Position numbers and translations under genes: made by a program
The notes under the pieces: generated by a model
What the model saw: the letters and a program-made list of their open reading frames with translations, nothing else
Told to the model about the DNA's origin: nothing
Database searches by the model: none
In this document: one piece after another, positions 1,457-55,724 of the stretch
Layout of the letters: every line of letters begins with the position of its first letter
How positions within the stretch are numbered: position 1 is the stretch's first letter
Assembly: GCA_963843515.1 (NCBI GenBank)
Contig: CAWJKH010000009.1
Location: forward strand, 7,472-71,471
Length of the DNA: 64,000 nucleotides
Reading direction: 5' to 3'
DNA from: an uncultured Actinomycetota bacterium
GTDB taxonomy: Bacteria > Actinomycetota > Thermoleophilia > RBG-16-64-13

Positions 1457-2472
1457 CGCGTAGAAGGCGTCCGCGTTTTGAGCTGGCCGCCGTGCCGGAC
1501 GAGAAGCCTGCGGCGGCGGGCGAGAAGCCCGCACCGGTCGAAAGGCCACTCACCGACGGGCAGGCCCGACGAAGGGTAAAGCTGGTCCGTGTCCCCGCGG
1601 GCCTGGTCCAGCGGGCAAAGCTCCCGCGCAGAAGGGTGCGCGGAAGAGAGATGCTCGTGCCGACCGCAGCCAACCCCGTGCGGGTGCTCGTCTACGGCCT
1701 GGACAAGCCGGAGGTTCTTCCCCTTTTCGTGAATATGCATGGCGGCGGCTTCGTCATGGGTCAGGCGGAGATGGACGATCTCTTTATGGCCGACCTGGCC
1801 AATGCGGCCGGAGTCAAGGTGATCAGTGTCGACTACAGCCTGGCACCAGAGGAGCCCTTCCCCAAGGCGCTCTATGAGTGCTACGAGGTGGTCAGGTACG
1901 CCAAGGAACACGCGGATGAGCTCGGGGTGGATCCCGACCGTATCGCTGTGGGCGGCCACAGCGCCGGTGGCAACCTGGGAGCCGCCCTCTGCCTCCTCGA
2001 CGCGGAGCGCAAGGCCCTGCGCTGCAAAGCGCTGATACTCGATTATCCTCCCTTGGACCTCCACACCGACCCGTACCTCAAGCCGCGACCGAGGAAGGCC
2101 ATCCCTCCGAGGATGGCCCGCCTATTCGACCGAGCGTACTGCGGCACCCGCGAGGCCGCCGGAAATCCGCTGATCTCGCCGTGCTTCGCCAGCGACGAGC
2201 AACTCGCCTCGTTCCCCCCCACTCTGATGATCTCGGCCGGCCTGGACTCCCTGGCCCCAGAGGAGAAGGATTTCAAGGACAGACTGGAAGCAGTGGGCGT
2301 GACGGTGACGTACAGGCTGTTCGAAGGCTCCCCGCATGGGTTCACGATCGGCAAGGGCCCCGACTCCGCCGAGGCCTGGCGAATGATGGCCGACTTCCTC
2401 AAGCGCCACCTGGCGCCCGCCCACACGCCCCGCGGCCCTACTCCCGGTGACTGCCGTCGCAATACGGCTTGA
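1453..2472 (+). CDS. alpha/beta hydrolase, hormone-sensitive-lipase-type esterase/lipase
   Basis: Oxyanion motif 'HGGGF', nucleophile elbow 'GGHSAGGN' and a C-terminal 'GSPHGF'. The start is uncertain; an internal ATG at 1651 is possible. Confidence 0.8.
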   Translation: MTRRRRPRFELAAVPDEKPAAAGEKPAPVERPLTDGQARRRVKLVRVPAGLVQRAKLPRRRVRGREMLVPTAANPVRVLVYGLDKPEVLPLFVNMHGGGFVMGQAEMDDLFMADLANAAGVKVISVDYSLAPEEPFPKALYECYEVVRYAKEHADELGVDPDRIAVGGHSAGGNLGAALCLLDAERKALRCKALILDYPPLDLHTDPYLKPRPRKAIPPRMARLFDRAYCGTREAAGNPLISPCFASDEQLASFPPTLMISAGLDSLAPEEKDFKDRLEAVGVTVTYRLFEGSPHGFTIGKGPDSAEAWRMMADFLKRHLAPAHTPRGPTPGDCRRNTA

Positions 2473-38464: not shown

Positions 38465-39571
38465 TTAGTAAACCCAGGGGATGATCCGCTTCGGCACGCG
38501 CCGCTCGTACGCGGCCCACAAGTTCCCGTACTTGGCGGCGCAACGCCGCTCGTCCGCCCTCTCGCGAGGAAAGAGCAGCGCCACGTAGTACAGCGGGTAG
38601 AGCCACACAACCCAATATCCCGGGTAGCCCAGTGTCAAGGTCAGTCCGACCGCCATCAAGATCTCGCCCAGGTAGTTGACGTGCCGGGAGATGCCCCAGA
38701 ACCCGCCTGCCAGCAGGGAGTTGGTCCCGTCGGTGATCACGCGCGGCTTCATGAAGCCTAGGAATACCCGGTCCGGTTCCCGCTTGAAGGTGTACTTCTG
38801 CATGTTGGCGCCGCGGGACAGGCCCCACCCCGCGAAGAAGAGGACGGCGTAGAGAGCCAGGAGCCCGGTCGGCGTTCCGGGGTCGGGTTTGTCCGCCACC
38901 GCCCACAGGCCGACCGCGTAGAAGTAGGGATAGAAGGTGAAGCAGCCCCACCCCAGTTTGAACCCTACCCGCTCGGCGAAGATGTCGTACGAGTACAGGT
39001 GCACCCGTTCGAACACCAGGTAATCGATGATGAACCAGAAGAACAGAGCGCAGTAGAGACCTACTCCGGCGGAGGCCTCCGAGCCGAAGACCAGCACGTG
39101 GTGGGCCGTGAACGAGAGCAGGTTGAGCGCCAGCATGGTGGCACCGATCAGGTAGAGGAACATCTTGACGTCCACCCGCCGCCCCGCCCGGCTGCCGCGA
39201 CGGCCGAAGAACTGGGGGTTCTCCCAGCGGCCGAAATACAAGTCGGCAAGGAAGCTTCTACCGGTGCCGGGCGCGGGCAGGACCACGGCGACGCTGAAGA
39301 GTACGCCGAGGACGGCCGAGCCGATGAGCCCCGTCCAGCGGTGGGTCCAGAGCCAGTCCCAGGCGAAGACCCCTGTGCTGCCCAGCACCACCCATAGCAG
39401 CACCAGGGCGACAAGCACCAGGGGCCCGTTGAGCCGGTAGTGGAGCGGCTTCCCGGTGGCGGAGTCGGCGACGTAGCCTTTCACCCTCCGTGCCGGCAGC
39501 GCCAGGTGAAGCGCCAGGATGACGGCGTAGATGATCCAGGGGGCGAAGAAGCCGGCAACGAAGTCGGTCAT
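38465..39571 (-). CDS. ERG4/ERG24-family sterol-reductase homolog (polytopic membrane oxidoreductase)
   Basis: 'LLAGGFWGISRHVNYLGEILMAVG' and the C-terminal 'ERADERRCAAKYGNLWAAYERRVPKRIIPWVY' match the family signature. About eight TM helices. Confidence 0.8.
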   Translation of the reverse strand: MTDFVAGFFAPWIIYAVILALHLALPARRVKGYVADSATGKPLHYRLNGPLVLVALVLLWVVLGSTGVFAWDWLWTHRWTGLIGSAVLGVLFSVAVVLPAPGTGRSFLADLYFGRWENPQFFGRRGSRAGRRVDVKMFLYLIGATMLALNLLSFTAHHVLVFGSEASAGVGLYCALFFWFIIDYLVFERVHLYSYDIFAERVGFKLGWGCFTFYPYFYAVGLWAVADKPDPGTPTGLLALYAVLFFAGWGLSRGANMQKYTFKREPDRVFLGFMKPRVITDGTNSLLAGGFWGISRHVNYLGEILMAVGLTLTLGYPGYWVVWLYPLYYVALLFPRERADERRCAAKYGNLWAAYERRVPKRIIPWVY

Positions 39572-39696
39572 GACGGGTCCTCGGGAGTCGTCGGGCGGGG
39601 AGTCGCCGGCCCGGCGGGTGCCCCCGGCTCTGCCGGCGCGGCGGGCATCGCCGGCGCGGGGGCTCCGCAGGCGCGGCCGGCACCAGACCGGCGGTG

Positions 39697-40500
39697 TTAG
39701 TGGCCATGATAGCGATGGCCCTGCGCCGAGGAAGCAGACGGCCCATGACGACCCTCGCCACGCGATTCACCGTCCCCGGGACCACCACGGGGCCCCGGCC
39801 CAACGCCCGCAGACGCCTGCTCCACCACTGCTTCGGGCTCGAGGGTCCCAGGAGCGTCCTTCCCTGCCGAGGCGCCGGCATAGCCTGGCGTGCGCACGGC
39901 GCCGGCGCAGCAGGCGACCACATCCACACCTTTGTCCTTCAACTCATACCAGAGACCCTCGGCCAGCACACGGGTAAAGGCCTTGCTCGCTGCGTAGGTG
40001 GCGATGTACGGCGAGCCCTGCTCGCCGGCAAGAGAGGTCATCAGGATGACGCCTCCCCGGCCCCGTGCGGTCATGCCCGGCAGCAGTCCGTGCACCAACG
40101 ACACCGGGGCACGGATGTTCACCGCGGCCACGCGCAGGAGATCGTCGAGGGAGGTGGAGGCGAACTCGCCGATGGGGGCGTAGGCGGCGTTATAGACGAC
40201 CAGCCCCACGTCCAGTCCGGAGCAGGCTTCCAACAGGCCCTCCAGGAAGCGCCGCTCGCCGAGGTCTCCGTCGAGACAGCGGACCTCCACGGGGAACCGG
40301 CCAGCGAGTTCCTGTCGCAGCGCGTCGAGCGCGGGCCGATGGCGGGCGACCAGTACCAGGTCGAGTCCTCTCGCGGCCAGCGCGTGGGCGTACGCGGCCC
40401 CCAGTCCTTTCGATGCGCCCGCGACCAGCGCCCAGGGGCCGTAACGCCCGGCGAAGGATCCTCCAAGAAAGGCTGTTGTTGTCGGTCTCTTTCGACTCAT
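39697..40500 (-). CDS. SDR-family oxidoreductase
   Basis: 'VAGASKGLGAAYA' (TGxxxGxG-like), 'NAAY' and 'YAASKAF' (YxxxK). Confidence 0.85.
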   Translation of the reverse strand: MSRKRPTTTAFLGGSFAGRYGPWALVAGASKGLGAAYAHALAARGLDLVLVARHRPALDALRQELAGRFPVEVRCLDGDLGERRFLEGLLEACSGLDVGLVVYNAAYAPIGEFASTSLDDLLRVAAVNIRAPVSLVHGLLPGMTARGRGGVILMTSLAGEQGSPYIATYAASKAFTRVLAEGLWYELKDKGVDVVACCAGAVRTPGYAGASAGKDAPGTLEPEAVVEQASAGVGPGPRGGPGDGESRGEGRHGPSASSAQGHRYHGH

Positions 40501-40544
40501 GAGCCTCTCGGAGCATAGCGAAGGCTATCCCCAGCTGTCTATAC

Positions 40545-40937
40545 TTGACGAAAGTCAACCACTTGACGGCCCTCCTGGTCTATCGTATTGACGGACGGCG
40601 CGATGCCCCACGGGAGGGGCGCGGTCGACATCAGAACGGGGGTGGCAACATAGACCGCCGGACTTTCATCTTCGCATCGGTGCTCTCGGCCTTGGCCCCC
40701 TTGGGCGCCGGCGTCGCTCGGAAATGGGAGGCGGCCGCGACCGCCGCGGCACCGACTGTGCGTCCGCAGGCTCAGGGCAACAGCTCGCTGGTTTGCGGGG
40801 GCTGCGGACAGCCCGGCCATAGCGCACTCGATCCCGGTTGCCCGGCTGTCTCGCGGCAAGCCTCGGCGGTCCAGGCGGCTGCGCGTCTGCGCGCCGCGGG
40901 AATGGGGGCGGCCGGTAGCGGGACGGCTGACTCGTGA
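40545..40937 (+). CDS. small Tat-signal protein with a Cys/His motif; start unresolved
   Basis: 'DRRTFIFASVLSALAPLGAGVA' looks like a Tat signal. 'CGGCGQPGHSALDPGC' follows. G+C at third codon positions is high after ~40650. An ATG at 40603 in another frame may be the true start if there is an indel. Confidence 0.35.
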   Translation: MTKVNHLTALLVYRIDGRRDAPREGRGRHQNGGGNIDRRTFIFASVLSALAPLGAGVARKWEAAATAAAPTVRPQAQGNSSLVCGGCGQPGHSALDPGCPAVSRQASAVQAAARLRAAGMGAAGSGTADS

Positions 40938-43619
40938 GCCTCACGCGCCGGCAATTCCTCAAGGGGACGGCCGCCGTAGCTGGGACCGTCGCCGCAGGAG
41001 CGGCCCTCGGCGGAGCCGCGGACCGCGTGCTGGCGGGCCGCGACGACCCGATCCGCTCCCTGCCCGTCGACCGGGTGGTGCGGACCACCTGCTCCCCCAA
41101 CTGCACGGGCTCCTGCGGGCAGCTCGCCTTCGTGCGCGACGGCAACATCGTCAAGGTCCAGCAGGCGGCGGACTACCCCGATACGGTCTACAACCCGCGG
41201 GGCTGTATGAAGGGGATCTCCTATCACCTGCTGGTCCACGGGCCGGACCGCATCAAGACACCTCTGGTGCGCGACGGCGACCGGGGGTCCGGCAAGTTCC
41301 GGCAGGCCACGTGGGAGGAAGTCCTCGACCGCATCGCCTCCGAGTTCAAGCGCATCGGGGATTCGTGGGGATGGGAAAGCATCCACGTGTTCGGGCAGGT
41401 CCCGGGGTCCGGTTACATCCAAAAGGGGGCGAACTACCGCGCCTGCGCCGCGCTGGGCATGACCCACGGCACCAGCTTCGACTTCAACGGCGACCTGCCC
41501 ATGGGCATGCCTATCACCTTCGGGGTCCAGAACGCCGAGCATGAGGCCAAGGACTGGGCCAACAGCCGGTTCATCCTGGCCATCGGGGCCAACCCGCTGG
41601 AGACGCGCATCCCCGATGCCCACTTCATCGAGGACGCCCTGGAGAAGGGGGCCCGCCTGGTGGTGGTCGACCCCACCTTCTCTTCCACGGCATCCAAGGC
41701 CGACGCCTGGATCCAGATCAAGCCCGGTACCGACGCCGCCTTCGGGCTGGCGATGTGCAAGCGGGTGATCGACGCGGGCAAGGCCGATTGGGACTTCATG
41801 CGCACGTACACCGACGCGCCGCTGCTCGTGCGGGCGGATACCCACAAGCGACTGCGCGCCGACGAGCTCGCGCTCGGGCAGGCCCGCGACCCCGGATCGG
41901 CCATGGGCGTGGGTCTTGGCAACTACGGCCGCAAAGCTCTCCCCGTGGGCACGGCGCCCGAAGTCCCGGGAACGGTCCCGCCGGCCGCCGATGCTCCACC
42001 GGCCCCGCGCTTCGTGGTCTGGGACAGCGCCGCCAAACAGCCGGTGATCGTCGGCACGGAGAGGCTGGGCATGCCCGCCGGGGTCGACGCCGCGCTGGAG
42101 GGCAGCTTCACCGTGACCCTCGCCGACGGCACCCAAGCTGAGGTCACCCCCGGATTCGCCCTGGTCCGAGCGGGGCTGGAAGTCCTGGACCCCGGAGCAT
42201 GCCGCGGAGATCACCGGGATCCCGGCCGACGACATCGTGCGCGTCGCCGACGCGTATGCGGCCGACCACCCGGCTGCCATCATCATGGGCGGCGGCACCA
42301 ACCACTGGTTCCACGGCGACCTCAACGGCCGCGCCCTGGCTCTGCTGGCCTCCCTCACGGGCAACATAGGGCGCTCCGGGGGCGGGTTCTCCGTCTATGT
42401 GGGCCAGTACAAGGTGCGGGTCGACACCTCTCCCTGGTGGAACATCGGCGACAAGAGGGCCAAGGTCGTCCCCAGCATCTACTTCACCCGGGGACGCTCC
42501 GACACCATGAACGAGACCGTCCCCTACCCCAAGAACGGGTGGAAGGCGCTGTTCTGCACGTTCGCGAACATGTTCATCCAGTCCATGGACGTCAATCGGC
42601 TCCATGAGACCCTCGCCGGCTGCGAGCTGGTGGTGGTCATGGACCACCAGATGACCGACACGGTCAAGTGGGCCGACATCGTCCTGCCGGCCACCACCTG
42701 GTACGAAAAGACCGACCTCACCGCCACCCCCCTCCACCCCTATCTGCAGATACAGCAGCCAGCGATACCGCCCGTCGGCGAGGCCCGGTCCGAGCTATGG
42801 GTGTGGCAAGAGCTGGTGAAGCGGATCGACCCAGCCATGTTCGCCGAGTCGTTCAACATGACCGAAGAGCAGGCCATCACGGCCATCCTCGAGAAGGGCG
42901 GATCCAAAGGAGGGCCCACCGAAGGGATCACGCTGGACCAGCTCAAGGCCGGTCCGGTCCGCCTGAAGGTCCCCGATCCCGACGTGGCCTTCGTCCGCCA
43001 GGTCAACGAGCTGCTGCCCTTCCCGCCGCGGTCGCTCCCGGCGGCGCTGGCGGCGACGGCGGTGTTCATCCCCACCAGGCGCATCGAGTTCTACAAGGAG
43101 GAGAACCGCTTCATCGAGGCCGGCGAGACCGTCCCCACCTACAAGCCGCCTTTCGACGATGGTATCCACGACCCCGCGCAATACCCTTTCGCGCTCCTGT
43201 CCCCGCACTCCAAGTGGCGCATACATTCCAGCTACGCGAACGTGGCCTGGTTGAACGAGATCACCTCGGGCAGGGCACCGGTGCTTCTCAACCCACAGAG
43301 CGCGGCCGAGAAGGGCATCGCGGAGGGCGACCTGATCGAGTTGGCCAACACCCGCGGCTCCGTCCGTGCGTGGGCCCACCTGACCGAGGCGGCCCTTCCC
43401 GGCACCGCCACCCTTTTTGAGGGGTGGTGGAGCTCGCAGCTCGGCGGGGGGAAGAGCGTCAACGAACTGACATCCTCCGAAGTCAATCCCATCCATGAGA
43501 TCCACTTCGTCCCCAACATGTGGTCTCCGTCGACCGCCTGGAAGGATTGCCGGTGCCAGGTGACCCGCGTGAGCGGCGGCGAGGCGGTCGCGGCCGGCAA
43601 GGAGGCGGCCCATGCCTGA
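40934..43619 (+). pseudogene. Tat-exported molybdopterin oxidoreductase catalytic subunit (DMSO-reductase family, Psr/Dms-like), interrupted by a +1 frame change near 42182
   Basis: 'RRQFLKG' Tat signal. 'CSPNCTGSCG...GCMKG' FeS motif. Frame 2 reads to '...FALVRAGLE'. The conserved 'WTPEHAAEITGIPADDIVRVA...GGGTNHW' then continues in frame 0 (the ORF-track entries 40934-42607 and 42237-43619). Confidence 0.85.
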
Positions 43620-44325
43620 CAAGGTGTCACCCATCGATGCCCTGTCCCCAGCGTCTCGCGCCTACGGCGAGATCGGGCCGGTGTCGAACAATCCGCGGTG
43701 GGCCATGGTGGTCGATCAGGAACGCTGCATAGGCTGCTGGTCGTGCTGCGTCATCTGCAAGTCGGAGAACGATGTGCCCCTGGGCATGTGGTGGAACCGC
43801 ATCAACACCGTTGGCGACGCGCTCGATACCCCCTACCTGGAGCAGGGGAAGCTCGCCATGCACTGGCTGCCACTGGCCTGTCAGCACTGCGAGAACCCGG
43901 CGTGCACCAAGGTGTGCCCTGTGAAGGCCACGTACCCGCGCGAGGATGGCCTGGTGATGCAGGATTCAGAGCGGTGCATCGGCTGCCGCTACTGCCTGGT
44001 GGCGTGCCCGTATGGAGTGCGCACGTTCAACTGGGGACACGCGGAGCGGCCCACCGATTTCAACACCGGCATGGTGGCGCCAAGGCCCATCGGGACCATG
44101 GAGAAGTGCACATTCTGCGTCCACAGACTCCCCGACGGACAGATCCCCTCTTGTGTGTGGTCGTGCCCCGGCCAGGCCCGCATCTTCGGCGACCTCAACG
44201 ATCCTGACAGCCGGGTGAGCCGGCTCATCCGCGATCGGGGCGGCTACCAGTTGCTGGAGGAACGGGGCACCGACCCGTGCGTCCTCTACCTTCCTCCGCG
44301 CCGCAAGAGGGGGTTGGAGCCGTGA
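43612..44325 (+). CDS. 4Fe-4S ferredoxin-type electron-transfer subunit (PsrB/DmsB-like)
   Basis: Four Cys clusters: 'CIGCWSCCVICK', 'CQHCENPACTKVCP', 'CIGCRYCLVACP' and 'CTFCVHR'. Confidence 0.9.
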   Translation: MPDKVSPIDALSPASRAYGEIGPVSNNPRWAMVVDQERCIGCWSCCVICKSENDVPLGMWWNRINTVGDALDTPYLEQGKLAMHWLPLACQHCENPACTKVCPVKATYPREDGLVMQDSERCIGCRYCLVACPYGVRTFNWGHAERPTDFNTGMVAPRPIGTMEKCTFCVHRLPDGQIPSCVWSCPGQARIFGDLNDPDSRVSRLIRDRGGYQLLEERGTDPCVLYLPPRRKRGLEP

Positions 44326-45644
44326 GCAGCGCCCAACCCGTGCAAGCGGGCGCTTCAGGCGCTTCGGGCGCTCCCATGACGCCATCCGTCGCGGCTACCA
44401 CGGCCGGCGAAGGGCGCGGTCGCGCCCGGCTGATATGGGTGACGGTCATCTGCCTGGGGCTGGCCGCCGGAATCGGAGCCTGGATCTACCAGTTGTCCAA
44501 CGGGCTTGCCGTCACCAATATGCGGAACCCCACCATGTGGGGCCTCTACATCACCCTCTTCATGTTCTTCGTGGGTCTGTCGGCGGGCGGGCTGATCGTG
44601 GCTTCGGCCGGCCGGCTGTTCGGCGGAGTGCAGGTGAAGCCCATCGTCCGTCTCGCCGTGCTGGAGGCAACCGTCGCCGTCATGTTGGCGGCGCTGTTCC
44701 TGCTGCCCGACATGGGCCGACCGGACCGGCTGTGGCACCTCATCCGCTACCCGAACTTCACATCGCCGATGGTGTGGGACATCACCATCGTCATCATCTA
44801 CTTCATCATCTCGCTGCTCTACGTGTGGGTCTATACCCGCGCCGACAATGCCGAGCGCCGCAGCTGGTTGGCCTTCGGCACCGGCACCTCGCCGGCCGAC
44901 TACCAGCGCGACGAGCGCATGAAGACGGTGCTCGCGGCCATAGGGCTGCCCGCCGCGATCCTGCTCCATTCCATCACTGCCTGGATCTTCGGGCTGCAGA
45001 TCGGCCGCGCCTTCTGGTACACCGCTCTCATGGCGCCCCTGTTCATCACGTCGGCGCTAGTCTCGGGTACCGCCCTCATGATCCTACTGGCCCTCGTCGT
45101 GCGGGGGGTGGGCCGGATATCGTTCGGGTCCGACCTCGTGGCCTTCATGGCCAAGTTGCTGGCGATCTTTGTGGCCGTGGAAGTGTTTCTGGTGTTCTGC
45201 GAGATGCTGACCGCCGCCTACGCTGGCGCAGCATTCGAGGCGGACCCCATAGCCCGCCTGCTTACCGGTCGCTTCAGCCCCCTCTTCTGGTTCGAGATCG
45301 TCATTGGACTGCTGGTGCCGTTCGTACTGCTGGTCGTTCCGAAGTGGAGATTGCGGGCCAGCCTGGTGGCCATCGCCTCGGTCCTCGCCGTGATTGGCAT
45401 ATTCGCCCACCGGCTCAACATCATCCTCAACGGCCTCACCTTCGCCACCATCCCATATCCCCCCGGAGTCTCCATCGGGACGCCGCAACCTGCCGGGACG
45501 GACTCGTTCGCGTTGAGTCTCCCGTATCTACCCAGCTGGGTGGAGTGGCTGGTCGCTTTGGGCGTGCTCTGCTTCGGGGCCCTTGTCTTGACGGCTGCGG
45601 TCATCTGGCTTCCACTGCGAGAGAAGGCCCACTCGACAGACTGA
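44322..45644 (+). CDS. NrfD/PsrC-family polytopic membrane anchor subunit
   Basis: GTG at 44322 overlaps the preceding stop (GTGA). About ten TM helices. 'MWGLYITLFMFFVGLSAGG' is typical of NrfD. Confidence 0.8.
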   Translation: MSSAQPVQAGASGASGAPMTPSVAATTAGEGRGRARLIWVTVICLGLAAGIGAWIYQLSNGLAVTNMRNPTMWGLYITLFMFFVGLSAGGLIVASAGRLFGGVQVKPIVRLAVLEATVAVMLAALFLLPDMGRPDRLWHLIRYPNFTSPMVWDITIVIIYFIISLLYVWVYTRADNAERRSWLAFGTGTSPADYQRDERMKTVLAAIGLPAAILLHSITAWIFGLQIGRAFWYTALMAPLFITSALVSGTALMILLALVVRGVGRISFGSDLVAFMAKLLAIFVAVEVFLVFCEMLTAAYAGAAFEADPIARLLTGRFSPLFWFEIVIGLLVPFVLLVVPKWRLRASLVAIASVLAVIGIFAHRLNIILNGLTFATIPYPPGVSIGTPQPAGTDSFALSLPYLPSWVEWLVALGVLCFGALVLTAAVIWLPLREKAHSTD

Positions 45645-45810
45645 GCCAGCCGGCGGGGCCGAAGGCCGCCGGGCTAAGCGGGCGGGCGTGGTCGGCGACG
45701 GGTGCCGCGCGCCGCCTCAGCCTCAGCCTAAGCCTAAGCCGCCAGGACCAGGAAGGATACCTGGCCGCGATGCAGAATCGCGGATTGACACCCGCAGCCA
45801 GGGAGGCACC

Positions 45811-46565
45811 GTGAGGAAGCTCGAGACCGATCTGTCCATCCTGCGCAAGTTCGAGTTCGAGCACTCGCCCGTCGGCGTGAAGTTTCTCTTCAGCCGGCCT
45901 GAAGGCATCGAGAGGCTGGACAAGCCAGCCGCCATCTGCGAGATGATCCGGATAGCCCAGGAGAGAAGCGCGGCCTTCTATGTTTCCCAGAACGAGGAGG
46001 GTTGTTTCGGCACCGTCGTCTTGGGGATGCGAGACGCGCCCGTTTGGGCGGAGGCAGGCCTATTGGGCGAGAAGTTCGGTGTTTACGAGGAGCCCCGGGC
46101 CAACGAGCGGATATACCAGCATATGCCCGAAGCTTGAGAAGGGCACGGTGAACTACGCGGCTTTCGCCTCGCTGGACGCCCTCGATTTCGAGCCCGACCT
46201 GCTCATCCTGATGGCCACTCCCTCCCAAGCGGAGGTCGTGCTCCGGGCGATGAGCTACTCGACCGGCGAGCTGTGGGAGAGCAAGAAGACCCCGGTGCTG
46301 AGTTGCGCCTGGATCTTCGCCTACCCGTGGCTCACCGGGAAGGTCAACTACATGATCACCGGGATGGGCTTTGGATCGAAGGCCCGGGAGGCGCTGCCCG
46401 AGGGCTGGATGCTGATCTCCATCCCCTGGGACAAGATCCCGGTGATCATCACCGAGCCTGGAGAAGATGACGTGGGTCTTGCCGGCCTACACGGAGGGTC
46501 GGGAGAAGTTCATGGAGAGGGAGGCGCGGGTGAGAGAGGAAGCAGCCCGAGCGGCACCCGGATGA
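45811..46565 (+). pseudogene. DUF169-family protein, interrupted by two +1 frame changes (about 46129 and 46457)
   Basis: GTG follows GGGAGG. Segment 1 ends '...ERIYQHMP'. Segment 2 reads 'KLEKGTVNYAAFASL...PDLLILMATPSQAEVVLRA...IPVIITE'. Segment 3 reads 'LEKMTWVLPAYTEGREKFMEREARV...'. Each segment has high G+C at third codon positions only in its own frame. Confidence 0.7.
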
Positions 46566-46606
46566 GGCTCTAGCTGTGCAAGAGTCACTACCAGGGGGAA
46601 GGCACT

Positions 46607-48944
46607 ATGCGTGTGACGCGAACTAACCTGTTCCTTGCCGCCGCGGCCGCCGCACTCCTCGCTCTTGCACAGCCAGCCTTCGCAGACACTTCCACAACCC
46701 TGCCCGCAACTCCGTGGATCACGCAGCCCTCAGACAGTGCGGACACGGTGGTCGAGCCCAACCCGGACCCCGGCACCTCCGAGCGGAAATCGGCCGATGC
46801 AAGGTTCCCAGTACTATTCGCAGACGATGTCAAGCCACAGGACGTGATTACCCTCGATCTGCTCGGCATTTCGCTGGCGGCCGGGGACGACACTAAGAAA
46901 GTTGTGCCTCTGGACTACGGTGCCTTCGCTCTATCTGCCAGCACCGGCGGGCAGCTCACAGTTGACGCGGCCTACCGGGCGGAAGTCGTGGTTACGATAG
47001 CGTTCTCCGCGATTCAGTCTCCCGGGACCTACACTTTGAATCTGCGCGCCTCGGCCCCCTCGTCCTCGCAACTGCCTCCCCAGACGATTGCGGTGCAGGT
47101 TATCATCCCCTCAGCAGCTGCGACCGTCCCGTCTGACTTTAGAATTGTGCATGCCCGTCCCTTCTGGGGTTTCTTGGGAGGGACAAAGGACGAGGACCTG
47201 CCGGCCTTGACCATTCGCGAAACAACCGGCAAGGCCCCGATAGTTTCCCCGCAGCTCGAGCACGGCGCCTTCCTAGACCCCAATGGCAAGCCGGTCGACG
47301 GCGATGTTGAGGTGGGCGAGGTGACGGCAGTCAACAGTGGTAGCGAGACATCAGCATCCATCAAGTCTGTGATGGACTTCCCCCTCGGGACTGCCAGCGC
47401 CATCGTCACGATGCAGGCCGCCGAGTTGTCTGCCCTTCAACAATTCAAGATCCAGGTTCTCGAGCGAAATTCCCGGATATGGATCTTCTTCATGACCTTC
47501 CTCGGGGTGATTGCTGGGCTGACCGTCAGGTCCGTCCTCGGGCCTTTGATCGATCTTAATAAGGCGAAGGAGGGCCCGGATCGCTTGACGAAGGAAATAA
47601 AGACGCGAGTGGGTAATGACCCGCTGATTAGTGAGAGATTGAATGACATAATCGTTACCTTGAACGGCGAAAACGAAGTCCTCATAAACGAAGTCAGTAC
47701 CAGGAGCCAGGCCTCAGGAACATCCCAATGGCTCCACAAGATGCGCCTCAGGAAGCTCGCGATCTTTGTCTACGAGGCTGGAAATGCTCAGCCGCTCACC
47801 GAACGCTGGCAGAACGCGGTCGGTGCCGCCCAGACGCGGGCCAATGCACTGCTCGAGTATCAGTATGGACGTCTGGACACGGCTAGGGCAGGATTGATTG
47901 GTCTCCAGCGGGCCATGAACACATTGCAGAACCGCGGAACTGGCCTTCCGAAGCCAGATCAGACAGTGCTGGGCGCTTTGCGGAAGCGACTGCCCACATA
48001 CCTCGTACTGAGCAACGTCGGAGAGGCTTTGAAGCAAGAAGACGAGATCGCCTGGGAACTCGCCGACTACATTTACGCAACGGTACGCTCTCCCCTGGCA
48101 GTCTATCCTGGGAAGGCTCCTCCGCCAGATAGCGGACCAGGGAGGCCTTCCCGCGTTCCAGCAGGACGAAATCGATGCGACTTTGAAGTCATGGCCAAGC
48201 GTTGTCCCACCCATATCGGAGGCAGACCAAAGCGCATTGATAACAAATGCCTTGGACAACCTTGGTGTCGTCGCGCGAACCGTGAGTTGGGTAGGGCATT
48301 TGGAGGGCGAACTAATAGCGGTGGCAGACACAGTGAGGGACATGCTGGTTGAAAAGGGTGCCAGCAGCGACGCGCTCACGGAACTCATCAATCGTGTCAA
48401 TTCGTACACTGACGGGCTCTCAGCGGCGGTGCCGGACCCCGACGGCCCAGCTGCGGACCAAGCCCTCAGTCTAGCGCGCGACCTGCTCCAGAACTGGACA
48501 ATGGTGCTCGATGACGGCACACCAAGGACAAGAGATAACCTCACTAGTCACAAGTACGTGGAAGCGGCGCGAACCTTTGTGAAGCCTGGCATCGCGGCTT
48601 TTTCGCCCCAGAGCTACGACTCACTGCCCGCGCTAATGCCGATAACCAAGGGCATGGTGGTCTCGGAGGAAACTTGGAGGCCGTCTCTGATCATCCCTGT
48701 CGTGCCCAAGAGTCATGAGCGAATCACCCGGACCGCTCGAGAAAACCGACCTGTTCTCACACTCTACAAGGCCCTATGGATGGCCATTCTCGTGGGTCTG
48801 ATCTTCCTGGCGATTTGGGTGCTCCGAGTGGACACATTTGTCGGAACTCCCGCGGAGTTGATACTCATCTTTCTTGGCGCCTTCGCAATCGATTTGAGCA
48901 CCTACAAGGTGCCCGAGTTCTTCGGCTCAGTCCTTCGCATTTGA
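46607..48944 (+). pseudogene. large (~780 aa) secreted/membrane hypothetical protein, +1 frame change near 48083
   Basis: Signal peptide 'AAAAALLALAQPAFA|DT'. ~270-aa extracytoplasmic region, TM 'IWIFFMTFLGVIAGL', ~400-aa helical region, and two C-terminal TMs. Frame 2 reads to '...ADYIYAT', then frame 0 reads 'YALPWQSILGRLLRQIADQ...'. G+C is lower than in neighbouring genes. Confidence 0.6.
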
Positions 48945-50421
48945 CATGTCTTGAATGGGACCGCAATACGCCCCCGCCGACGAGTGTGAGTTCTACCTAA
49001 TCCAAGCCTAGCCGCGTCCCCGACCGCGCCGGCCGAGGCCTCGATCCCGGGCCTCGATGCGTAGTGGTTGCTCGCCATTGTCGCCGCTCTGACCGTGGCC
49101 CTTACCTCAGAAGAGCTGACGAGGGGAGTCTCGAATTGGCCCAACTGGGTGAAGAGCTCCGGGCATCGTTGGATGCTCTTCGCCCCCATGAGCCCGTAGG
49201 CGAGGCCATCAAAGGCGGCCGCGGAGATCCCCTCCCTGGGGTGTATTGGTTCGGTCCTTTCCAGAAGAGTGCCGGGTAGCGGACAGAGCGTCGACATCTG
49301 GCTCCCTGCACCTCGGCGCAATAGAGACACGTGTAGGTTATAGGTCTCTCTGACGTCGCACGACGTCTCCCAGGGGAAGCCGACGATCAGCGACACGTGG
49401 ACCTGGAATCCCTTGGCGAGCGCATGCTCGAGCATGGCCAGCGACCGATCGAGATCGATTCTCTTTCCGATCTTGTTCAGGGTGCCCTGGGAGGCGCTCT
49501 CGAGGCCCACAAAGATACTCCGGCACCGGCCTTTCCAAAGTACGTCCAAGTCCTCGGCCCGCAGGTGGCTCAGGGTCAGGCTGCAGCCCCAGGTGAGACT
49601 GTCTTGAGCTTCTTGGGCCAGCTGCCCGCAGAGGTCGAGAAGCCAGCGCCGAGAGTTCGCGAGGTTATCACCGATCAGCGAGACGAATGTGAGATCGGTG
49701 AGATCCCGGAGCCGACGGATCTCCTCAAGCACCCTGCCGGTCGATTTCCGACGGACCTTCCTACCCCAATAGACGCTTGTTGAACAGAACGAGCAGCGAC
49801 CCGCACACCCCCGTTCAGCCTCAAGGGGTATCTCTGACCGATCATATTCGGAACAGCTGAGGCTCGCCGCGAAGTCGGGAGCATCGCCGATACAGGGAAG
49901 GTTGTCGAGGTTCGGCTCCGGCTCGCGAGGGACGAAAGGCCGCTCCCTCGTGGCGATGCCCGGAAGGCCGGCTTCGGAACGACTTGCAACCCACTCCGGC
50001 CGCATCAAGAGGTCTCTGAGGGTCCCTTCTGCCTCACCCACGAATACCGCCTCGATCTCCGGGTAGCTTGCCAACGCCGCCTCTGGGTGTACGGAAACAT
50101 GTGGTCCGCCCATCCAGATGCGCAGACGGGGGTGGCGGCGTTTCAGCTCCTGACGAGCCCGATGGAATGGTGGAAGGAACTGCACATCGTGGAAAGACCT
50201 ACGGCCGTGTATCTCTCACCCCGGACGAGGTCCGCGACGCCGCGCACGAGCTCGTCCGAACTCGAAAAGACCTGGCCGGTCAGGGTGTGGAGTTGCAGGA
50301 GGTCAATTGACCCCGAGCATCCCTTTGCGGCGGCCTGCACGGATAGCAGGCCGTAAGGGACGTAGGTCACTATCCGATCCTGGTCGACGAACGGCGCTGG
50401 GACAAGAAGGAGTCTAGACAC
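48902..50421 (-). pseudogene. B12-binding-domain radical SAM protein, -1 frame change near 50150
   Basis: The N-terminal Rossmann-like part 'LLLVPAPF...YGLLSVQAAAKG...VGLSTMCSSFHHSIGLVR' (ORF 50143-50421) continues as 'ELKRRHPRLRIWMGGPHVSVHPE...EAERGCAGRCSFCSTSVYWG' (ORF 48902-50185). Confidence 0.75.
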
Positions 50422-50478
50422 TTGCGGCGGGAGGGCTTGGGCAAGGTTTCACCGGTGCTTGTGGCTCTGCATCGGCGA

Positions 50479-50706
50479 CTATGCGACGCCGGGGCTCTTG
50501 AACGGCTTGGGTACGCGGTACGGTATATTTGCCGCCGCTAAGGCGGCTGACAACTCATCGAACGTCGCGGAGTACATCATGGCGGTGGGCGTGTCGAAGC
50601 CCGCCGCATTCAGCTTTTCCTCCATATCTTCCAAGAAAGCTATGAGCTTGTCTGGATGGTCCACAAATGCCGCCACAATGGGACCGGCATCAAATTCCTC
50701 GGCCAT
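50479..50706 (-). CDS. small acidic protein/peptide (75 aa) immediately upstream of the radical SAM gene
   Basis: ATG at 50706 follows AAAGGGGAG. 'MAEEFDAGPIVAAFVDHPDKLIAFLEDMEEKLNAAGFD...NIPYRVPKPFKSPGVA'. It has an acidic helical N-terminus and a basic Pro-rich C-terminus. Confidence 0.6.
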   Translation of the reverse strand: MAEEFDAGPIVAAFVDHPDKLIAFLEDMEEKLNAAGFDTPTAMMYSATFDELSAALAAANIPYRVPKPFKSPGVA

Positions 50707-50803
50707 AAGTCTCCCCTTTCCGATTCGGGTTCGTACAACAGAGGGTCTTGCAGCAGCAAGCCCTCCCGCCGCCAAGGAAATCAGCCTACTTCGTCGCCCC
50801 GAT

Positions 50804-53800
50804 CTATCCGGCCCCAGGTTCCGCCGACTGGACCGCCGCCGCAGATCTCTCCTCCCACTTCCTCTTCATCTGGACGATCCGCGGGTGATCGGCGCCGCCG
50901 ATATCGGCCATCAATGTGACCGCATTCTCGAAGTCCTCTTCGGCCTCCATCCAACGCGCCTGCTGCCGCCTGAGGTGTGCTCTGCGAAGGCAGAGCTCCG
51001 CGCAGAAGGGATGGTGAGGCGAGAACCTCTCGCTCACCACAGCCTCACTCCGCTCGAGGAAAGCCTCCGCGAGATCCAACCTCCCGCGCGTCATCTCGAC
51101 ACCCGCCAAGGTCCACAGGGCGACCGCTTGACAGTGGTCGACCACTGTCGCCTCCATCCGGCGAAGTACGCTCAGGACAGTCTCCTCCGCCTTGTCAATC
51201 TTGCCTGCCTGCAGTTGCGTCTCGGCCAGAACGGTTAGTGCTTCGAACAGGTGGCGGGGCTCCGCGCCCTCCTCAAGAACCCCAACAGCGTACGCGAGAT
51301 GCTCTTCGGCCTCCAGATACGCCCCCTGGGCGAAGCGAACTTCCGCCAGGTGACGGGCCGCCGAAGCCTTGAGGTAGGGATTGACTATGCCGTCCACGCA
51401 TTCCTGGGCCTGCACCGCCGCCTCCTCCCACCTCCCGTCGACCACGTTCACGGAGGAAAGGTTGATGAGCAGCATCCAGCCTCTCTGCGTACCTTTGAGA
51501 TCGAACCTCCGCAGCGCTTCTTCTATCACCTGTCTCATCTCATCGTGCCGCCCAAGAAAGAAAAGGTTCGTGCTCAGGTAGATATTCAGATCCTGCAGCA
51601 CGCCCGCATCGCCGGACGTCTTGGCTTCCTCAAGAGCGAGTGCTCGACGAAAGACTTCCTCGGACTCGAAGAACCTGTCGTTGTTGAGAAAGCACAGCCC
51701 GAGGATCAGAAGGAGGCGGGTCAGCGACGGGTCGTCATCGCGTCCGGACGCGTCCAGCGATCTTATTGCGCGTTCTGCCAGGTGGATGCATGCGTCGTGC
51801 GCCCCTCGCTGAAAGTGGCAGCCGGCAAGCACGGCCGTGGCAGCCATCGTGCGCGGATCCGTCGGTCCGCAAGCCTTCAAAACCTTGTCGTAGAACACCT
51901 GGGCCGAATCGAGAAGCTCCCCCCCGGATCGTGCCAGCCAGAAGGGTTCGGTTGCCGTGACGAACCATTTGACCTGGCTGTGAGAGTCAGTAGACTCCGA
52001 AGTCTCATCAAACGCTTGCAGCAGTGCCGACATGGCATCGCGGTAGTAGGCGACTGCCTCGGCATCTGCAGCCATGCTCACCGACTGGTCGCCCGCCTTG
52101 AGAAGATAGCTCTGAGCGTTCTGCCAATCCTCAGCTCTGGTGTAGTGATAGGCAAGAATGCCGTACAGGTCCCTTATCTGGCCTGAGTACAGCTCCTCGA
52201 TGGCACGAGCGACCCGACGATGCAGTTCCCGACGCTGCTTGAGAAGTAGCGTGCCGTATGCCGCCTCCTGTACGAGGGCGTGCTTGAATGCATACTCCGG
52301 TTCAGGCTCCAGACGTTTGAGAAAGATGAGCTGGTGGTCCTGTAGCGAGCGCAGGTTTTCGCCGAGCTCCGGCTCGGTCGAGGCAGACAGCGACCGCAGA
52401 AGCCGGCGAAAGAAGCTTCGCCCGATGACGGAGGCGCAGAGCAAGTCCTGCCGCGTTGACTCTGCGAGACGGTCGATACGGGCCGAGATCACGCCCTGAA
52501 CTGTCGATGGTATGGAAAGTTCGCCCTCGATCGTCGCCGTCCATCTTCCGCCCTCGTCCCGTTGGAGCATGGCCAGGTCGATGAGGTGGCGGATGATCTC
52601 CTCGACAAAGAACGGGTTGCCCTCGGAACGGGTCCGGATGGTGCGCATCACTCTGGGCTCGATCTCGCTGCCCCTTAGCAGCTTGGACACGAGCTGTTCC
52701 GTGTATCTCTGCGACAGTGGGCTGAGCTGAATGTGGACGCACTGCGAACCAGCATGGCGACGTGCAGCCTCGAGCAACTCAAGCGTGATCGAATCCGTCC
52801 CAGCTCGTCCTACCAGGCAGATGAGTACTGGTGCCTGCGCCGCGAGTGGGAGCAGGTTCTCGATAAGTGCGGCCGATGACCGGTCGAGCCAGTGAACATC
52901 CTCAAAAGCAAGGATCAGGGGCTTCTCAGTGCTGAGCCTGCGGGCGTAGCGCTGCGCTCGGTCGACGACGATCCTCCGAACGCCCTCCTCCTCCGCCACC
53001 AGAGGCTCGTACTCGCCGAACTGACCCCTGGCAATACCGAGAAGACTGCCCAACACCGGAAGAAAGTCGTCCGCCTTGTCCGCGAACAGCCGCGTGGCCC
53101 GTTCGCGCAGTTTGCGCTCCTTCTCTTCGGCCGAGTCCCCTAGCTCGATGCCGCAGTCCGCCTGCACGATCTCGCGGAACGGAAGGTAACTGATGTTCTG
53201 CCCGTAGGAGAGCGTCCTGGCCTCCAGCCACTTGAGACCGCGGCTCGCGGCTTCACGGCGCACCTCGGCCGTGAGACGAGATTTGCCGACCCCGGCATCG
53301 CCCGTGACGAGGACAACGCAGCCCAGTCCTTCGTCCAATCGGTCTAGAGACGCTCGGAACAGTGCCATCTGCTCGTCTCGCCCCACGAGAGCCGACTCGA
53401 TGCCGCGTCCACCCCGGACCGAAGTCTGGCCGGACTCGACGTTGTTGATCCGCTGATAGGAGAGTTCCCCGGGTCTCCCGCGGATCTTCATCTCCCCGGC
53501 AGGCTCAGCGTCCACGAACCCACCCACCAGCTTGAGCGTCTCCGGGCCCACCAGCACTTCGCCGGGACCCGCTGCATTGGCCAGACATGAAGCGTCATCG
53601 ACGGACTGGCCTATGACTGAGTAGTCGTGAACCCCGTTTCCGAGAGAGCCGGCGATGACCATCCCGGTGTTGATACCGATATGCACCGAGAGGCCCTCTA
53701 CACCTTTCTCGGCTCCGAACTCCGACACCGCATCACGGATGTCCATCGCCGCCCGCACGGCCATCTCCGCATCATTGTCGTGAGCCACAGGAGCGCCGAA

Positions 53801-54739
53801 CAAGGCGATGAAGGTATCCGGTCCCTTGCGTTCGACCCGGCCACCGTAGCGTTCGACGCAAGGAATGATGCAGTCGAAGAGCGCGCCTGCAAGCCCGTGC
53901 AGCGACTCGAAACCAAGTGTCTCGGCCAGGGTGGTGAGACCACCGATGTGGGCGAGAAGGACTGCCACCAGGCGGCGCTCGTCGGCCGTCCTGATGGCCG
54001 CCGCGCATGAGGCGGCGGAGGCGGCGGTCCCCAGGGCCCCCTGCCCATTCCCCGCGGCCGGGAGGGTCCCGGCCTCGTTACCAGTCTCCGTCGTCACTTC
54101 CGAAGGCGCCATCGCGGCCGCCGGCGCCACCAGCTTGTACCCCACGTTCCGTACGGTCTCAATTAATCCGCAGCCGGGCGCCACGGCCTCGAGCTTCTTC
54201 CGCAGGTTGCCCATGTGCACGGTCACGACCCGCGGATCGCCAAACTCGTAGCCCCATACCTGCTCGAGCAGTTCCTGGCGGCTATAGACCCAGCCGGGAT
54301 GGCGGGCGAGATGGCACAGCAGTTCGAACTCCCGGGCGGTGAGGTCCAGGGAGGAGTCCCCGATCCTGGCCTCATGGCCCGCGAAATCGATGGTCAGCGG
54401 CCCCACCACCAGTTGCGGCGCCTCCCGCTCGGCCGAGTCCGGCTTGCCGAGGACCTTTTCAACCTCCGCGAGCAGCGAATCCGGTCCGGACCAAACGCTG
54501 ATAAGCGGGATGGTGTGCGCCTCCGCGAGCACAGCGAGGCTGTCGGCGGCTGTCGGCGTGAGTAGGCGCGGGTCGGCGACGATCACCGCCGGATGGGAGC
54601 GCTGCACCGTCCGCATCGCCGAGGAGGGGGAGTCGGCTGACAGCACGGGGTATCCGGCTCCCAGCAGGATCCTCCGCAGCGGGTCTTGAGGGTCTCGCCG
54701 AGCCACGATCAGAATCTGTGCAGACGGGGTGACGGCCAC
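50804..54739 (-). CDS. 1311-aa multidomain signal-transduction protein: receiver-like + OmpR/PhoB-type winged helix + degenerate class III cyclase-like + P-loop STAND/AAA ATPase + TPR repeats
   Basis: GTG follows GGGAGG. wHTH 'LTAREFELLCHLARHPGWVYSRQELLEQVWG...VTVHMGNLRKKLE...VGYKL'. Cyclase-like 'RRLVAVLLAHIGGLT...IALFGAPVAHDNDAEMAVRAA...HIGINTGMVIAG'. Walker A 'GDAGVGKSRL'. A long TPR-like C-terminus. Confidence 0.85.
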   Translation of the reverse strand: MAVTPSAQILIVARRDPQDPLRRILLGAGYPVLSADSPSSAMRTVQRSHPAVIVADPRLLTPTAADSLAVLAEAHTIPLISVWSGPDSLLAEVEKVLGKPDSAEREAPQLVVGPLTIDFAGHEARIGDSSLDLTAREFELLCHLARHPGWVYSRQELLEQVWGYEFGDPRVVTVHMGNLRKKLEAVAPGCGLIETVRNVGYKLVAPAAAMAPSEVTTETGNEAGTLPAAGNGQGALGTAASAASCAAAIRTADERRLVAVLLAHIGGLTTLAETLGFESLHGLAGALFDCIIPCVERYGGRVERKGPDTFIALFGAPVAHDNDAEMAVRAAMDIRDAVSEFGAEKGVEGLSVHIGINTGMVIAGSLGNGVHDYSVIGQSVDDASCLANAAGPGEVLVGPETLKLVGGFVDAEPAGEMKIRGRPGELSYQRINNVESGQTSVRGGRGIESALVGRDEQMALFRASLDRLDEGLGCVVLVTGDAGVGKSRLTAEVRREAASRGLKWLEARTLSYGQNISYLPFREIVQADCGIELGDSAEEKERKLRERATRLFADKADDFLPVLGSLLGIARGQFGEYEPLVAEEEGVRRIVVDRAQRYARRLSTEKPLILAFEDVHWLDRSSAALIENLLPLAAQAPVLICLVGRAGTDSITLELLEAARRHAGSQCVHIQLSPLSQRYTEQLVSKLLRGSEIEPRVMRTIRTRSEGNPFFVEEIIRHLIDLAMLQRDEGGRWTATIEGELSIPSTVQGVISARIDRLAESTRQDLLCASVIGRSFFRRLLRSLSASTEPELGENLRSLQDHQLIFLKRLEPEPEYAFKHALVQEAAYGTLLLKQRRELHRRVARAIEELYSGQIRDLYGILAYHYTRAEDWQNAQSYLLKAGDQSVSMAADAEAVAYYRDAMSALLQAFDETSESTDSHSQVKWFVTATEPFWLARSGGELLDSAQVFYDKVLKACGPTDPRTMAATAVLAGCHFQRGAHDACIHLAERAIRSLDASGRDDDPSLTRLLLILGLCFLNNDRFFESEEVFRRALALEEAKTSGDAGVLQDLNIYLSTNLFFLGRHDEMRQVIEEALRRFDLKGTQRGWMLLINLSSVNVVDGRWEEAAVQAQECVDGIVNPYLKASAARHLAEVRFAQGAYLEAEEHLAYAVGVLEEGAEPRHLFEALTVLAETQLQAGKIDKAEETVLSVLRRMEATVVDHCQAVALWTLAGVEMTRGRLDLAEAFLERSEAVVSERFSPHHPFCAELCLRRAHLRRQQARWMEAEEDFENAVTLMADIGGADHPRIVQMKRKWEERSAAAVQSAEPGAG

Positions 54740-55276: not shown

Positions 55277-55520
55277 ATGAACGAGATCGCGGCCTTCATG
55301 GTCATCTCGCTCATGACGCGGAGCCGGGTTGGATGGGACGAACGGATGCACCGGTACCCCCTGGCGACCGAACCGGAGCCGAGCGATGGCACCGCGGTGT
55401 GCCGGCTCGGAAAGGCGGCGGGGATGGCCCCCTTGGGCGCCCGCACCCTTCCCGCAACGGGCGTGGCGAGAGCTCCTGCTGAAGCCCCTGGCGGCGAATA
55501 GGCCCTTTGAGGAGGAGTGA
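55277..55520 (+). pseudogene. small ORF P2 (~80 aa), apparent +1 frame change near 55469; its stop overlaps the P3 start
   Basis: ATG follows AAGGAGG. Hydrophobic N-terminus 'MNEIAAFMVISLM'. G+C at third codon positions collapses after ~55468 in the starting frame. It stays high in the +1 frame, which ends in TGA at 55518-55520 and overlaps the P3 ATG (GTGATG). Confidence 0.4.
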
Positions 55521-55724
55521 TGAACCCGCACATGACATTGACCGACGCGGTACGTTGTCGAAGAGCGGTTCGCGGTCGAGGACCACCTTGCACCTCCGAC
55601 GGCTGCCGGGAAAGCCCCGGACCTGCCCGCGGATGCCGGCGAGGCCATCCAGGACCCCACAGATCCGACCGAGCGCAGCCGGCAGGACTCGCTGGACTTC
55701 CTGCGCCGGCTGGTGATGGGGTAG
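55520..55724 (+). pseudogene. small ORF P3 (~68 aa), paralog of P1, apparent +1 frame change near 55550
   Basis: ATG follows GAGGAGGAG. 'MNPHMTLTDA' in the starting frame. The C-terminus homologous to P1, '...ERSRQDSLDFLRRLVMG*', is in the +1 frame. Confidence 0.45.

Follow-up and report, generated by a model that had tools for sequence, protein, structure and literature searches.

What does a cobalamin-dependent radical enzyme do with the small acidic protein encoded directly ahead of it? The question is raised by a 64,000-nucleotide stretch of DNA (here called the window; positions 7,472 to 71,471 of the forward strand of contig CAWJKH010000009.1, assembly GCA_963843515.1) from an uncultured Actinomycetota bacterium, in which a gene for a 75-residue protein is followed by a gene for a radical S-adenosylmethionine (SAM) enzyme that depends on B12 (cobalamin). 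The partnership of a ribosomal peptide with a B12 radical SAM enzyme is well known as a general kind, and an earlier note on this DNA had proposed that the two genes form a precursor and maturase pair. That pairing is supported by the analysis reported here: the two genes are co-conserved in 19 of 22 loci, the tails of the small proteins vary, and the nearest characterised relatives of the enzyme are ApyD and QCMT, both of which methylate carbon atoms of peptide or protein residues. The reading favoured here, with rather better than even confidence, is that the 75-residue protein is the ribosomally made substrate of the downstream class B radical SAM enzyme, with C-methylation proposed for its tail; the substrate relationship taken by itself appears fairly probable, and the specific chemistry is rated lower.

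The small gene has the good ribosome-binding site (GGGGAG) that the earlier note had pointed out, and it ends 57 nucleotides ahead of the GTG start of the radical SAM gene at position 50421, both genes lying on the minus strand; neither a terminator nor a stable hairpin was found in the stretch between them. It is not a chance frame, since positional orthologs of 70-72 residues precede the orthologous enzyme in L002, L003 and L004 (L and P numbers are our own handles for loci and sequences), which together with the window protein form a group with 34-37% identity. The division of the product into an acidic, helical N-terminal part and a basic, proline-containing tail also holds. Residues 1-58 contain 12 acidic residues (Asp/Glu) and two basic ones (Lys), and the tail (residues 59-75, ANIPYRVPKPFKSPGVA) has a charge of +3, with three basic residues, four prolines and no acidic residue. 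AlphaFold2, run on a four-sequence alignment, predicts helices at residues 8-58 and a disordered tail, a low-confidence model (pLDDT 59) that was judged too poor for a fold search. A word-index search with the 75-residue protein returned only the protein itself, and so did phmmer against 1.84 billion representatives, apart from HEAT, ankyrin and other repeat proteins, which were rejected as relatives because their matches are inflated by repeats.

The genomic context of the enzyme clade was surveyed in 22 distinct loci, a comparison that the earlier note had proposed. A same-strand open reading frame (ORF) of 62-125 codons lies upstream of the enzyme gene in 19 of them, spread over Actinomycetota, Acidobacteriota, Pseudomonadota and Bacillota (the window, L002, L003, L004, L181, the P0005 locus, L086, L084, L085, L087, L006, L007, L173, L013, L011, L010, L012, L009/L169 and L167). 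The distance is 1.4 kb in L012, and in L009/L169 and L167 a radical SAM/SPASM gene stands between the small gene and the B12 radical SAM gene. Every homolog or positional counterpart whose context was examined adjoins a B12 radical SAM gene of the same clade, and small proteins without such a neighbour, which the earlier note had named as an argument against the pairing, are absent from that set; the additional profile matches P0086 and P0092-P0094 lie outside it. Two loci carry more than one small gene: L086 has it in duplicate, and the P0005 locus holds a pair of small ORFs. Tandem copies are typical of substrates rather than of accessory subunits.

The small proteins share a common architecture, in which M-x-x-E and a helix are followed by D-(P/E)-x-L-L, a second helix, A-G-(V/F)-x-L-T-x-x-E, a third helix and a tail of 6-25 residues. 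Averaged over all pairs, the N-terminal parts are 18% identical and the tails 8%. Among the tails are PFKSPGVA, GGFVE, KGFVEQ, NFVTRW..., RQFPA, AGFGGVIPP, EFGGG, EFWNHYVK and AFVGHF; most have a Phe or Tyr 2-10 residues from the C-terminus, [Y/H]-x-x-F is frequent, and others have a terminal TG[IY] or HVKV or an (SHM)n stretch. Phe69 of the window protein is invariant in its seven closest counterparts. A variant is seen in L009/L169/L170 and L167/L168, where the small protein has 106-109 residues, its leader-like domain being preceded by a twin-arginine type signal (RRK(L/I)LAGAGAA...) and its C-terminus reading YPQ(I/V)HVKV, and where the gene order is small gene (6001-6324 in L169), radical SAM/SPASM, clade B12 radical SAM. 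An anSME-like radical SAM gene at 60978-62276 of the window was considered as the counterpart of the SPASM enzyme of the L167-type clusters and was rejected.

Judged by its domains, the enzyme is a class B (cobalamin-dependent) radical SAM protein. Its second frame scores 33.1 bits against the PF02310 B12-binding model (cut-off 32.1), the same domain being found in the genome scan, and 63.4 bits against PF04055 (Radical_SAM). The CAGRCSFC cluster motif (CxxxCxxC) is intact, and C206, C210 and C213 are invariant in a 36-sequence enzyme alignment. The family is sharply bounded: a word-index search yields 38 relatives at 38-66% identity, after which the E-value jumps from 1e-55 to 1e-30, and a maximum-likelihood tree unites 48 clade rows as monophyletic with support of 100/99. 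In this tree the window enzyme falls into a six-row group with L002, L003, L004, P0005 and P0006, and the sister group consists of a Chloroflexia set of four paralogs (L014) and P0041. The clade is also rare. It comprises about 40 proteins, with records from Actinomycetota, Terriglobia, Alpha- and Gammaproteobacteria and Bacillota, besides the Chloroflexia of the sister clade; the 400 other genomes that were sampled from the phylum contain no enzyme match at E <= 1e-60, and when metagenomes were scanned with the enzyme alignment most of the matches were distant B12 enzymes, L087, L088 and a partial L096 being the only ones of the clade.

The best family for every clade member is NF050148 (ApyD), matched over profile positions 26-450 (ends 430-453) of 645. 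Scores are 114.7 bits for the window fragment, 144-209 for intact clade members and 258 for an L014 sister-clade enzyme, well above those for lipid or cofactor B12 enzymes, among which HpnJ and HpnR appear as secondary matches; no clade member reaches the NF050148 cut-off (750 bits, equivalog) or that of any other family. The closest solved structure by sequence is 9CCB (E = 1.3e-29), which is QCMT, the glutamine C-methyltransferase of methyl-coenzyme M reductase (2026 review, PMC12931638). The genome encodes CobS and five other B12-binding proteins, and cobalamin should therefore be available. The G+C content lies at 57-63% over 47-53 kb and at 65-69% on either side, which, taken with the lack of the enzyme in the 400 sampled genomes, suggests horizontal acquisition.

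These properties allow a mechanism to be proposed. The acidic, helical residues 1-58 would serve as the recognition (leader-like) part; because the enzyme has no RiPP recognition element (RRE; RiPP, ribosomally synthesized peptide that is post-translationally modified), it would bind this part directly, and the flexible 17-residue tail would enter the active site. There, the [4Fe-4S] cluster would cleave SAM, the resulting 5'-deoxyadenosyl radical would take a hydrogen atom off an sp3 carbon in one of the tail residues, and methylcobalamin would donate a methyl group, adding 14 Da per event. The most likely target would be the C-beta of Phe69 or of a neighbouring residue, by analogy with ApyD, which beta-methylates a penultimate Tyr. 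The analysis shows the conserved pairing of the genes, the class of the enzyme, its intact catalytic motifs and the rarity and monophyly of its clade, whereas the substrate relationship, the site and type of chemistry, a later removal of the N-terminal part and the fate and function of the product are inferred.

A number of points weigh against this reading of the pair. No small ORF adjoins the enzyme in three of the 22 loci (L008, L088 and L172), and the window protein matches no RiPP model. Protease, peptide exporter and RRE are all lacking within about 10 kb of the pair in the window, just as the earlier note had remarked; there is no PqqD/RRE match at E <= 1, and MNIO and P450 proteins are absent from the neighbourhood. 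Nor is any peptidase or exporter conserved across the loci, MFS transporters occurring only in L002 and L084 and an S8 peptidase with an ABC gene only in L173. Among the features expected of a RiPP pair, the co-conserved small ORF, the conserved N-terminal part with a variable tail and the multiple copies are thus present, and a leader peptidase or exporter is not. The Tat-type signal in the L009/L167 branch suggests that the whole small protein is exported there, no leader being cut off. Class B enzymes also make cross-links, and by analogy a cross-link such as that made by PbsB would be the main alternative chemistry. As assembled, moreover, the radical SAM gene starting at GTG 50421 lies in two frames, with no single uninterrupted reading frame.

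The kinship of the small proteins is likewise weak when seen from the window. An HMM (hidden Markov model) of the window group has no significant hmmsearch match to the other small-protein groups, hhalign matches the window group to the rest over 51 collinear columns at E = 1.2e-4 and a probability of 55%, and BLASTP of the window group against the small protein of L181 gives E = 0.017. A jackhmmer search from the window protein stops at its own group of four, and one from L181 alone gathers nothing; started from the small protein of L084 or L085, it collects L086 (two copies), L087, L010, L009/L169, L167 and L181, with no false match at the inclusion threshold among 24,708 ORFs. L181 forms a bridge between the groups, its enzyme being 55% and its regulator 70% identical to those of the window, with the same synteny and with a tail, KPIPFRSPPGAA, that parallels KPFKSPGVA. 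From these comparisons, the small proteins of the window group and of the other groups are probably homologs that evolve fast.

Is the enzyme alive in this genome? Compared with intact homologs (446-489 residues), the frame switches between ...FHHSIG and ARQELKRRHP (coding strand ATC GGG, then CTC GTC), and one added base at 50158-50160 gives ...SIGARQELKRRHP, collinear with SIGIAVELRRRFP of the homologs. If the frame change is real, the system could be dead here, the decaying remnant of a horizontally acquired island, as the two frames, the lowered G+C content and the absence from the other sampled genomes of the phylum would allow. The surroundings tell a different story. At least four further frame breaks occur within about 16 kb in conserved genes (two in DUF169 and one each in the short-chain dehydrogenase/reductase (SDR) gene and P3), several of them at or beside short C/G runs; tblastn with proteins from syntenic relatives finds DUF169 (45811-46556) spread over three frames and SDR (39672-40455) over two. 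In the sister metagenome-assembled genomes (MAGs) L002 and L003, whose contig names point to long-read assemblies, the regulators are split over two to three frames. But for the single shift, the enzyme shows good conservation, being 66% identical to that of L004 and keeping all invariant residues of the cluster motif. Because neighbouring conserved genes and sister-MAG regulators are split in the same manner, the break at 50158-50160 is probably an assembly indel; real inactivation of the enzyme gene has only a slim chance of being true, and the same slim chance is given to the system as a whole being dead. It is important to point out that the contig is indel-prone, and that arguments for gene decay in this genome must allow for frequent single-base frame breaks.

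Two further observations concern this region. Over 48902-49051 the radical SAM frame runs about 50 codons past the end of the homologs and overlaps by 43 nucleotides the 3' end of a convergent gene (48183-48944), which may reflect a natural extension or another frame problem. An orphan protein of about 780 residues (46607-48944) is probably also frame-broken.

If the substrate reading is wrong, the small protein could instead be an obligatory non-substrate partner, a specificity or activating subunit, with the enzyme acting on P1/P3 (FLHRLVMG) or on a lipid or small molecule made by SDR and ERG4/ERG24. Precedent exists in MpcB of clavusporin, which requires the non-substrate protein DUF5825, and with no RRE present, recognition could conceivably fall to a separate protein. 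The window, L003, L084 and L002 all have P1-type genes, SDR and ERG4/ERG24 are syntenic in the actinobacterial sub-clade, and the lipid enzymes HpnJ and HpnR are among the secondary matches. On the other hand, the match to ApyD is much stronger than those to the lipid enzymes, and P1-type, SDR and ERG4 genes occur in a single sub-clade only, and on the opposite strand, whereas the upstream small ORF tracks the enzyme across phyla. Tandem copies with differing tails (L086 and the P0005 locus), and tails that vary in length and sequence as RiPP cores do, suit a substrate better. A non-substrate partner is accordingly regarded as rather unlikely.

The resemblance to Nif11-type leaders that the earlier note had seen is not supported. 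The window protein gave no match at E <= 1 to 5 to the Nif11/NHLP leader HMMs (TIGR03798, TIGR03793 and PF07862), and it has neither a GG or GA site before the tail nor an ABC or C39 gene within about 10 kb. Twelve of the 13 aligned counterparts match no RiPP model either; each model is matched by one member, judging by its sequence presumably the Chloroflexia L014 peptide, with E = 2e-19 for NF038399, E = 1e-12 for PF14407 and weak NHLP and Nif11 matches. When the small protein was aligned by hhalign with the three NHLP-clan peptides of L014, the register was collinear and the probability 5-8% (P = 0.005-0.009). By the leader HMMs, the small protein thus falls outside the Nif11/NHLP families, and its likeness to them is one of motif order only.

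The L014 locus is clearly a multi-precursor cluster. Over L014:1-12800, in a Chloroflexia MAG, three NHLP-clan precursors (tails HWDFVGIPM, HWDFLGVPFIF and VGFGGVGTNPTW) are interleaved with four B12 radical SAM paralogs. Further downstream lie genes for a pepsin-like aspartyl protease, an acyltransferase_3 protein and a DPP-IV/S9 peptidase that is seemingly split over two ORFs.

The remaining neighbours of the pair are dominated by a large regulator directly upstream (the features of the window are collected in the table), which probably controls the pair. An AAA_16/TPR regulator of this kind adjoins the pair in 13 of the 22 family loci. Its output module is a winged helix with a cyclase-like domain in the window, L003, L084 and the P0005 locus, and by homology in L002, L004 and L181, where the gene is split or cut at a contig end; a cyclase-like domain alone in L085 and L173 (here beside a cNMP-binding Crp protein) and, by homology to the window regulator, in L006 and L007; and a protein kinase in L086, L087 having a homologous AAA_16 protein. 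Between the window (50804-54739) and L181 (L181:2-3058), identity falls from 70% for the regulator, over 1007 residues, to 55% for the radical SAM enzyme and about 30% for the small protein. L181, L002 and L004 differ in their tails, yet their regulators are all 69-70% identical to that of the window, and a co-variation of the TPR region with the peptide tail was looked for and not seen.

Table. Features of the small gene, the radical SAM gene and their neighbours (positions in the window)
Feature	Position	Strand	Description
Small gene	50479..50706	(-)	75 aa (MAEEFDAG...KPFKSPGVA); ATG at 50706, stop 50479-50481; ORF and ribosome-binding site
Ribosome-binding site GGGGAG	plus-strand 50711-50716	(-)	4 nt ahead of the ATG of the small gene; read from the sequence
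Small protein, acidic helical N-terminal part	50533-50706 (residues 1-58)	(-)	
Small protein, basic Pro-rich tail	50482-50532 (residues 59-75)	(-)	
Phe69 codon of the small protein	50500-50502	(-)	Shared by all 7 closest counterparts
B12 radical SAM, first frame	50143..50421	(-)	92 aa: first 86 residues of the B12-binding domain, 6 residues out of frame, stop; aligns to residues 1-89 of intact homologs
Frame-change site: C-run (G-run on coding strand)	50158..50160		A single missing base would explain it
B12 radical SAM, second frame	48902..50185	(-)	427 aa, usable from ~50157 downward: remaining B12 domain, radical SAM core (CAGRCSFC), conserved C-terminal region (RCPELFTQLG...), 50-aa extension absent from homologs
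AAA_16/TPR regulator	50804..54739	(-)	1311 aa, directly upstream: OmpR-type winged helix, class III cyclase-like domain, AAA_16 (STAND) ATPase, TPR
P1	55042..55245	(+)	67 aa (MNPQLTMT...FLHRLVMG), divergent from the regulator; homologs in L003, L084, L002
P3, second P1-family copy	55520..55724	(+)	Split over two frames

The regulator bears on another explanation, which overlaps in part with the substrate reading, as the rival readings do in general: the small protein could be modified yet function intact, rather than as a leader/core RiPP, and in a bolder form of this idea its modified tail would be the ligand of the AAA_16/TPR STAND regulator. The lack of a peptidase and the Tat-signal variants of L009/L167 point towards a small protein that is modified and left whole, in that neither a leader peptidase nor an exporter shows conservation alongside the pair and that the signal precedes the whole domain in L009, L167 and L169. 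The STAND/TPR protein adjoins in more than half of the loci, its output module being swapped and its AAA_16 part constant, and L173 adds the Crp regulator. Large AAA_16/TPR proteins, however, are a usual type of pathway-specific regulator in the gene clusters of actinobacteria, nine loci are without one, and the TPR region does not co-vary with the tail; this explanation, too, is held to be on the unlikely side. Taken furthest, the components could make up a self-contained circuit, in which an uncleaved tail tailored by the enzyme would be read by the TPR sensor, the output would be swapped between lineages, and P1/P3 would be parts or targets. Such a circuit seems decidedly unlikely; if real, tail sensing of this type would represent a new class of enzyme-written peptide signal, intracellular or exported.

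The P1 family, which accompanies the regulator in the actinobacterial sub-clade, is placed either divergently to it or immediately 3' of the radical SAM gene (homologs at L003:65-271 (-), L084:8474-8680 (-) and L002:~1344-1595 (-)). Its members have 67-69 residues, an N-terminal MNP..T.T and an almost invariant C-terminal RQ(D/E)(A/S)L.FLH(R/K)LVMG, with no Pfam or NCBIfam match, and P1 is a possible further component of the system. On the other side of the pair (38465-46573), genes for SDR, an ERG4/ERG24-like protein and DUF169 are syntenic with it in L002, L003, L004 and L181, as they are in L084 without DUF169; in the window, SDR and DUF169 are separated by an inserted molybdoenzyme/4Fe-4S/NrfD operon. 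The locus was also considered as a defence system, a reading that was rejected, PADLOC giving weak generic matches only.

Neither the enzyme clade nor its small proteins are covered by a Pfam or NCBIfam model. No description of the family was met in the full-text literature on ApyD, B12 radical SAM genome mining, C-methylation, the Frankia peptide family and 9CCB, a scope that leaves subscription journals aside, and no paper on Franean1_4349 peptides was met in the literature searched. If the substrate reading is true, the pair would represent an undescribed minimal peptide-modification family, with about 40 members scattered over at least four phyla, in which an RRE-less relative of ApyD recognises a helical domain of 55-60 residues and modifies a tail of 6-25 residues. 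It would offer a compact two-gene system for leader recognition by a class B radical SAM enzyme without an RRE, and could supply C-methylated or cross-linked aromatic residues. Given the tight link to a large STAND regulator and the lack of export and cleavage genes, one may ask if a natural product is made at all, or rather a modified small protein that has its role in the cell.

How does this pair compare with known systems? The mpc genes of clavusporin (MpcA/MpcB/MpcC) similarly place a small actinobacterial precursor beside a B12 radical SAM C-methyltransferase; there, MpcB carries a CX7CX2C motif and needs DUF5825, the precursor is a 39-mer, and an S9 peptidase and a transporter are present (PMC10849626). 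All of these, the CX7CX2C motif, DUF5825, the S9 peptidase, the transporter and the 39-mer, are absent here. Bottromycin radical SAM methyltransferases beta-methylate Phe, Val and Pro. PbsB, of the biphenomycin-like peptides, is a B12 radical SAM enzyme that makes a C-C cross-link (PMC12257519). The shared feature is a B12 radical SAM enzyme acting on aromatic or hydrophobic residues of ribosomal peptides, but the clusters of PbsB and of the bottromycin enzymes carry MNIO, arginase, YcaO and other proteins, and the homology is no closer than the general class; they are cited only to illustrate other chemistry open to such enzymes.

QCMT (9CCB), taken together with Mmp10 in this comparison, is, like the enzyme studied here, a class B radical SAM protein, and it methylates an sp3 carbon in a protein that is left intact; its substrate, in contrast, is a large subunit of a methanogen enzyme with no dedicated small substrate gene, and the TIGR04014 score of 81 bits is far from the cut-off of 360. 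With proteusin-type systems (NHLP/Nif11-leader precursors and C-methyltransferases of the PoyB/PoyC type), the pair has in common a long helical leader-like part, a C-terminal part that would be modified and a B12 radical SAM maturase; the sister clade L014 is linked to NHLP-clan precursors, and the motif order D-P-x-L ... A-G-(V/F/Y)-x-L-T is similar. It differs in its very short tail, in the lack of an epimerase, a Gly-Gly site and a C39 peptidase transporter, and in a TIGR03975 score of 61 bits against a cut-off of 282.

By family match, the closest parallel is with ApyA/ApyD of the aminopyruvatide pathway of Burkholderia thailandensis, where ApyD, a B12 radical SAM enzyme described as RRE-containing, converts the penultimate residue of its ApyA precursor to (2S,3R)-beta-methyltyrosine (PMC10635010). 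The part of ApyD beyond the catalytic domains is absent from the present enzyme, which scores far below the 750-bit cut-off; MNIO, P450 and methyltransferase partners are missing, and the precursors are unrelated. What the two systems share is a class B radical SAM enzyme, ApyD being the best-matching family, and an aromatic residue near the C-terminus of the small protein, which in most of the tails described here stands 2-10 residues from the end.

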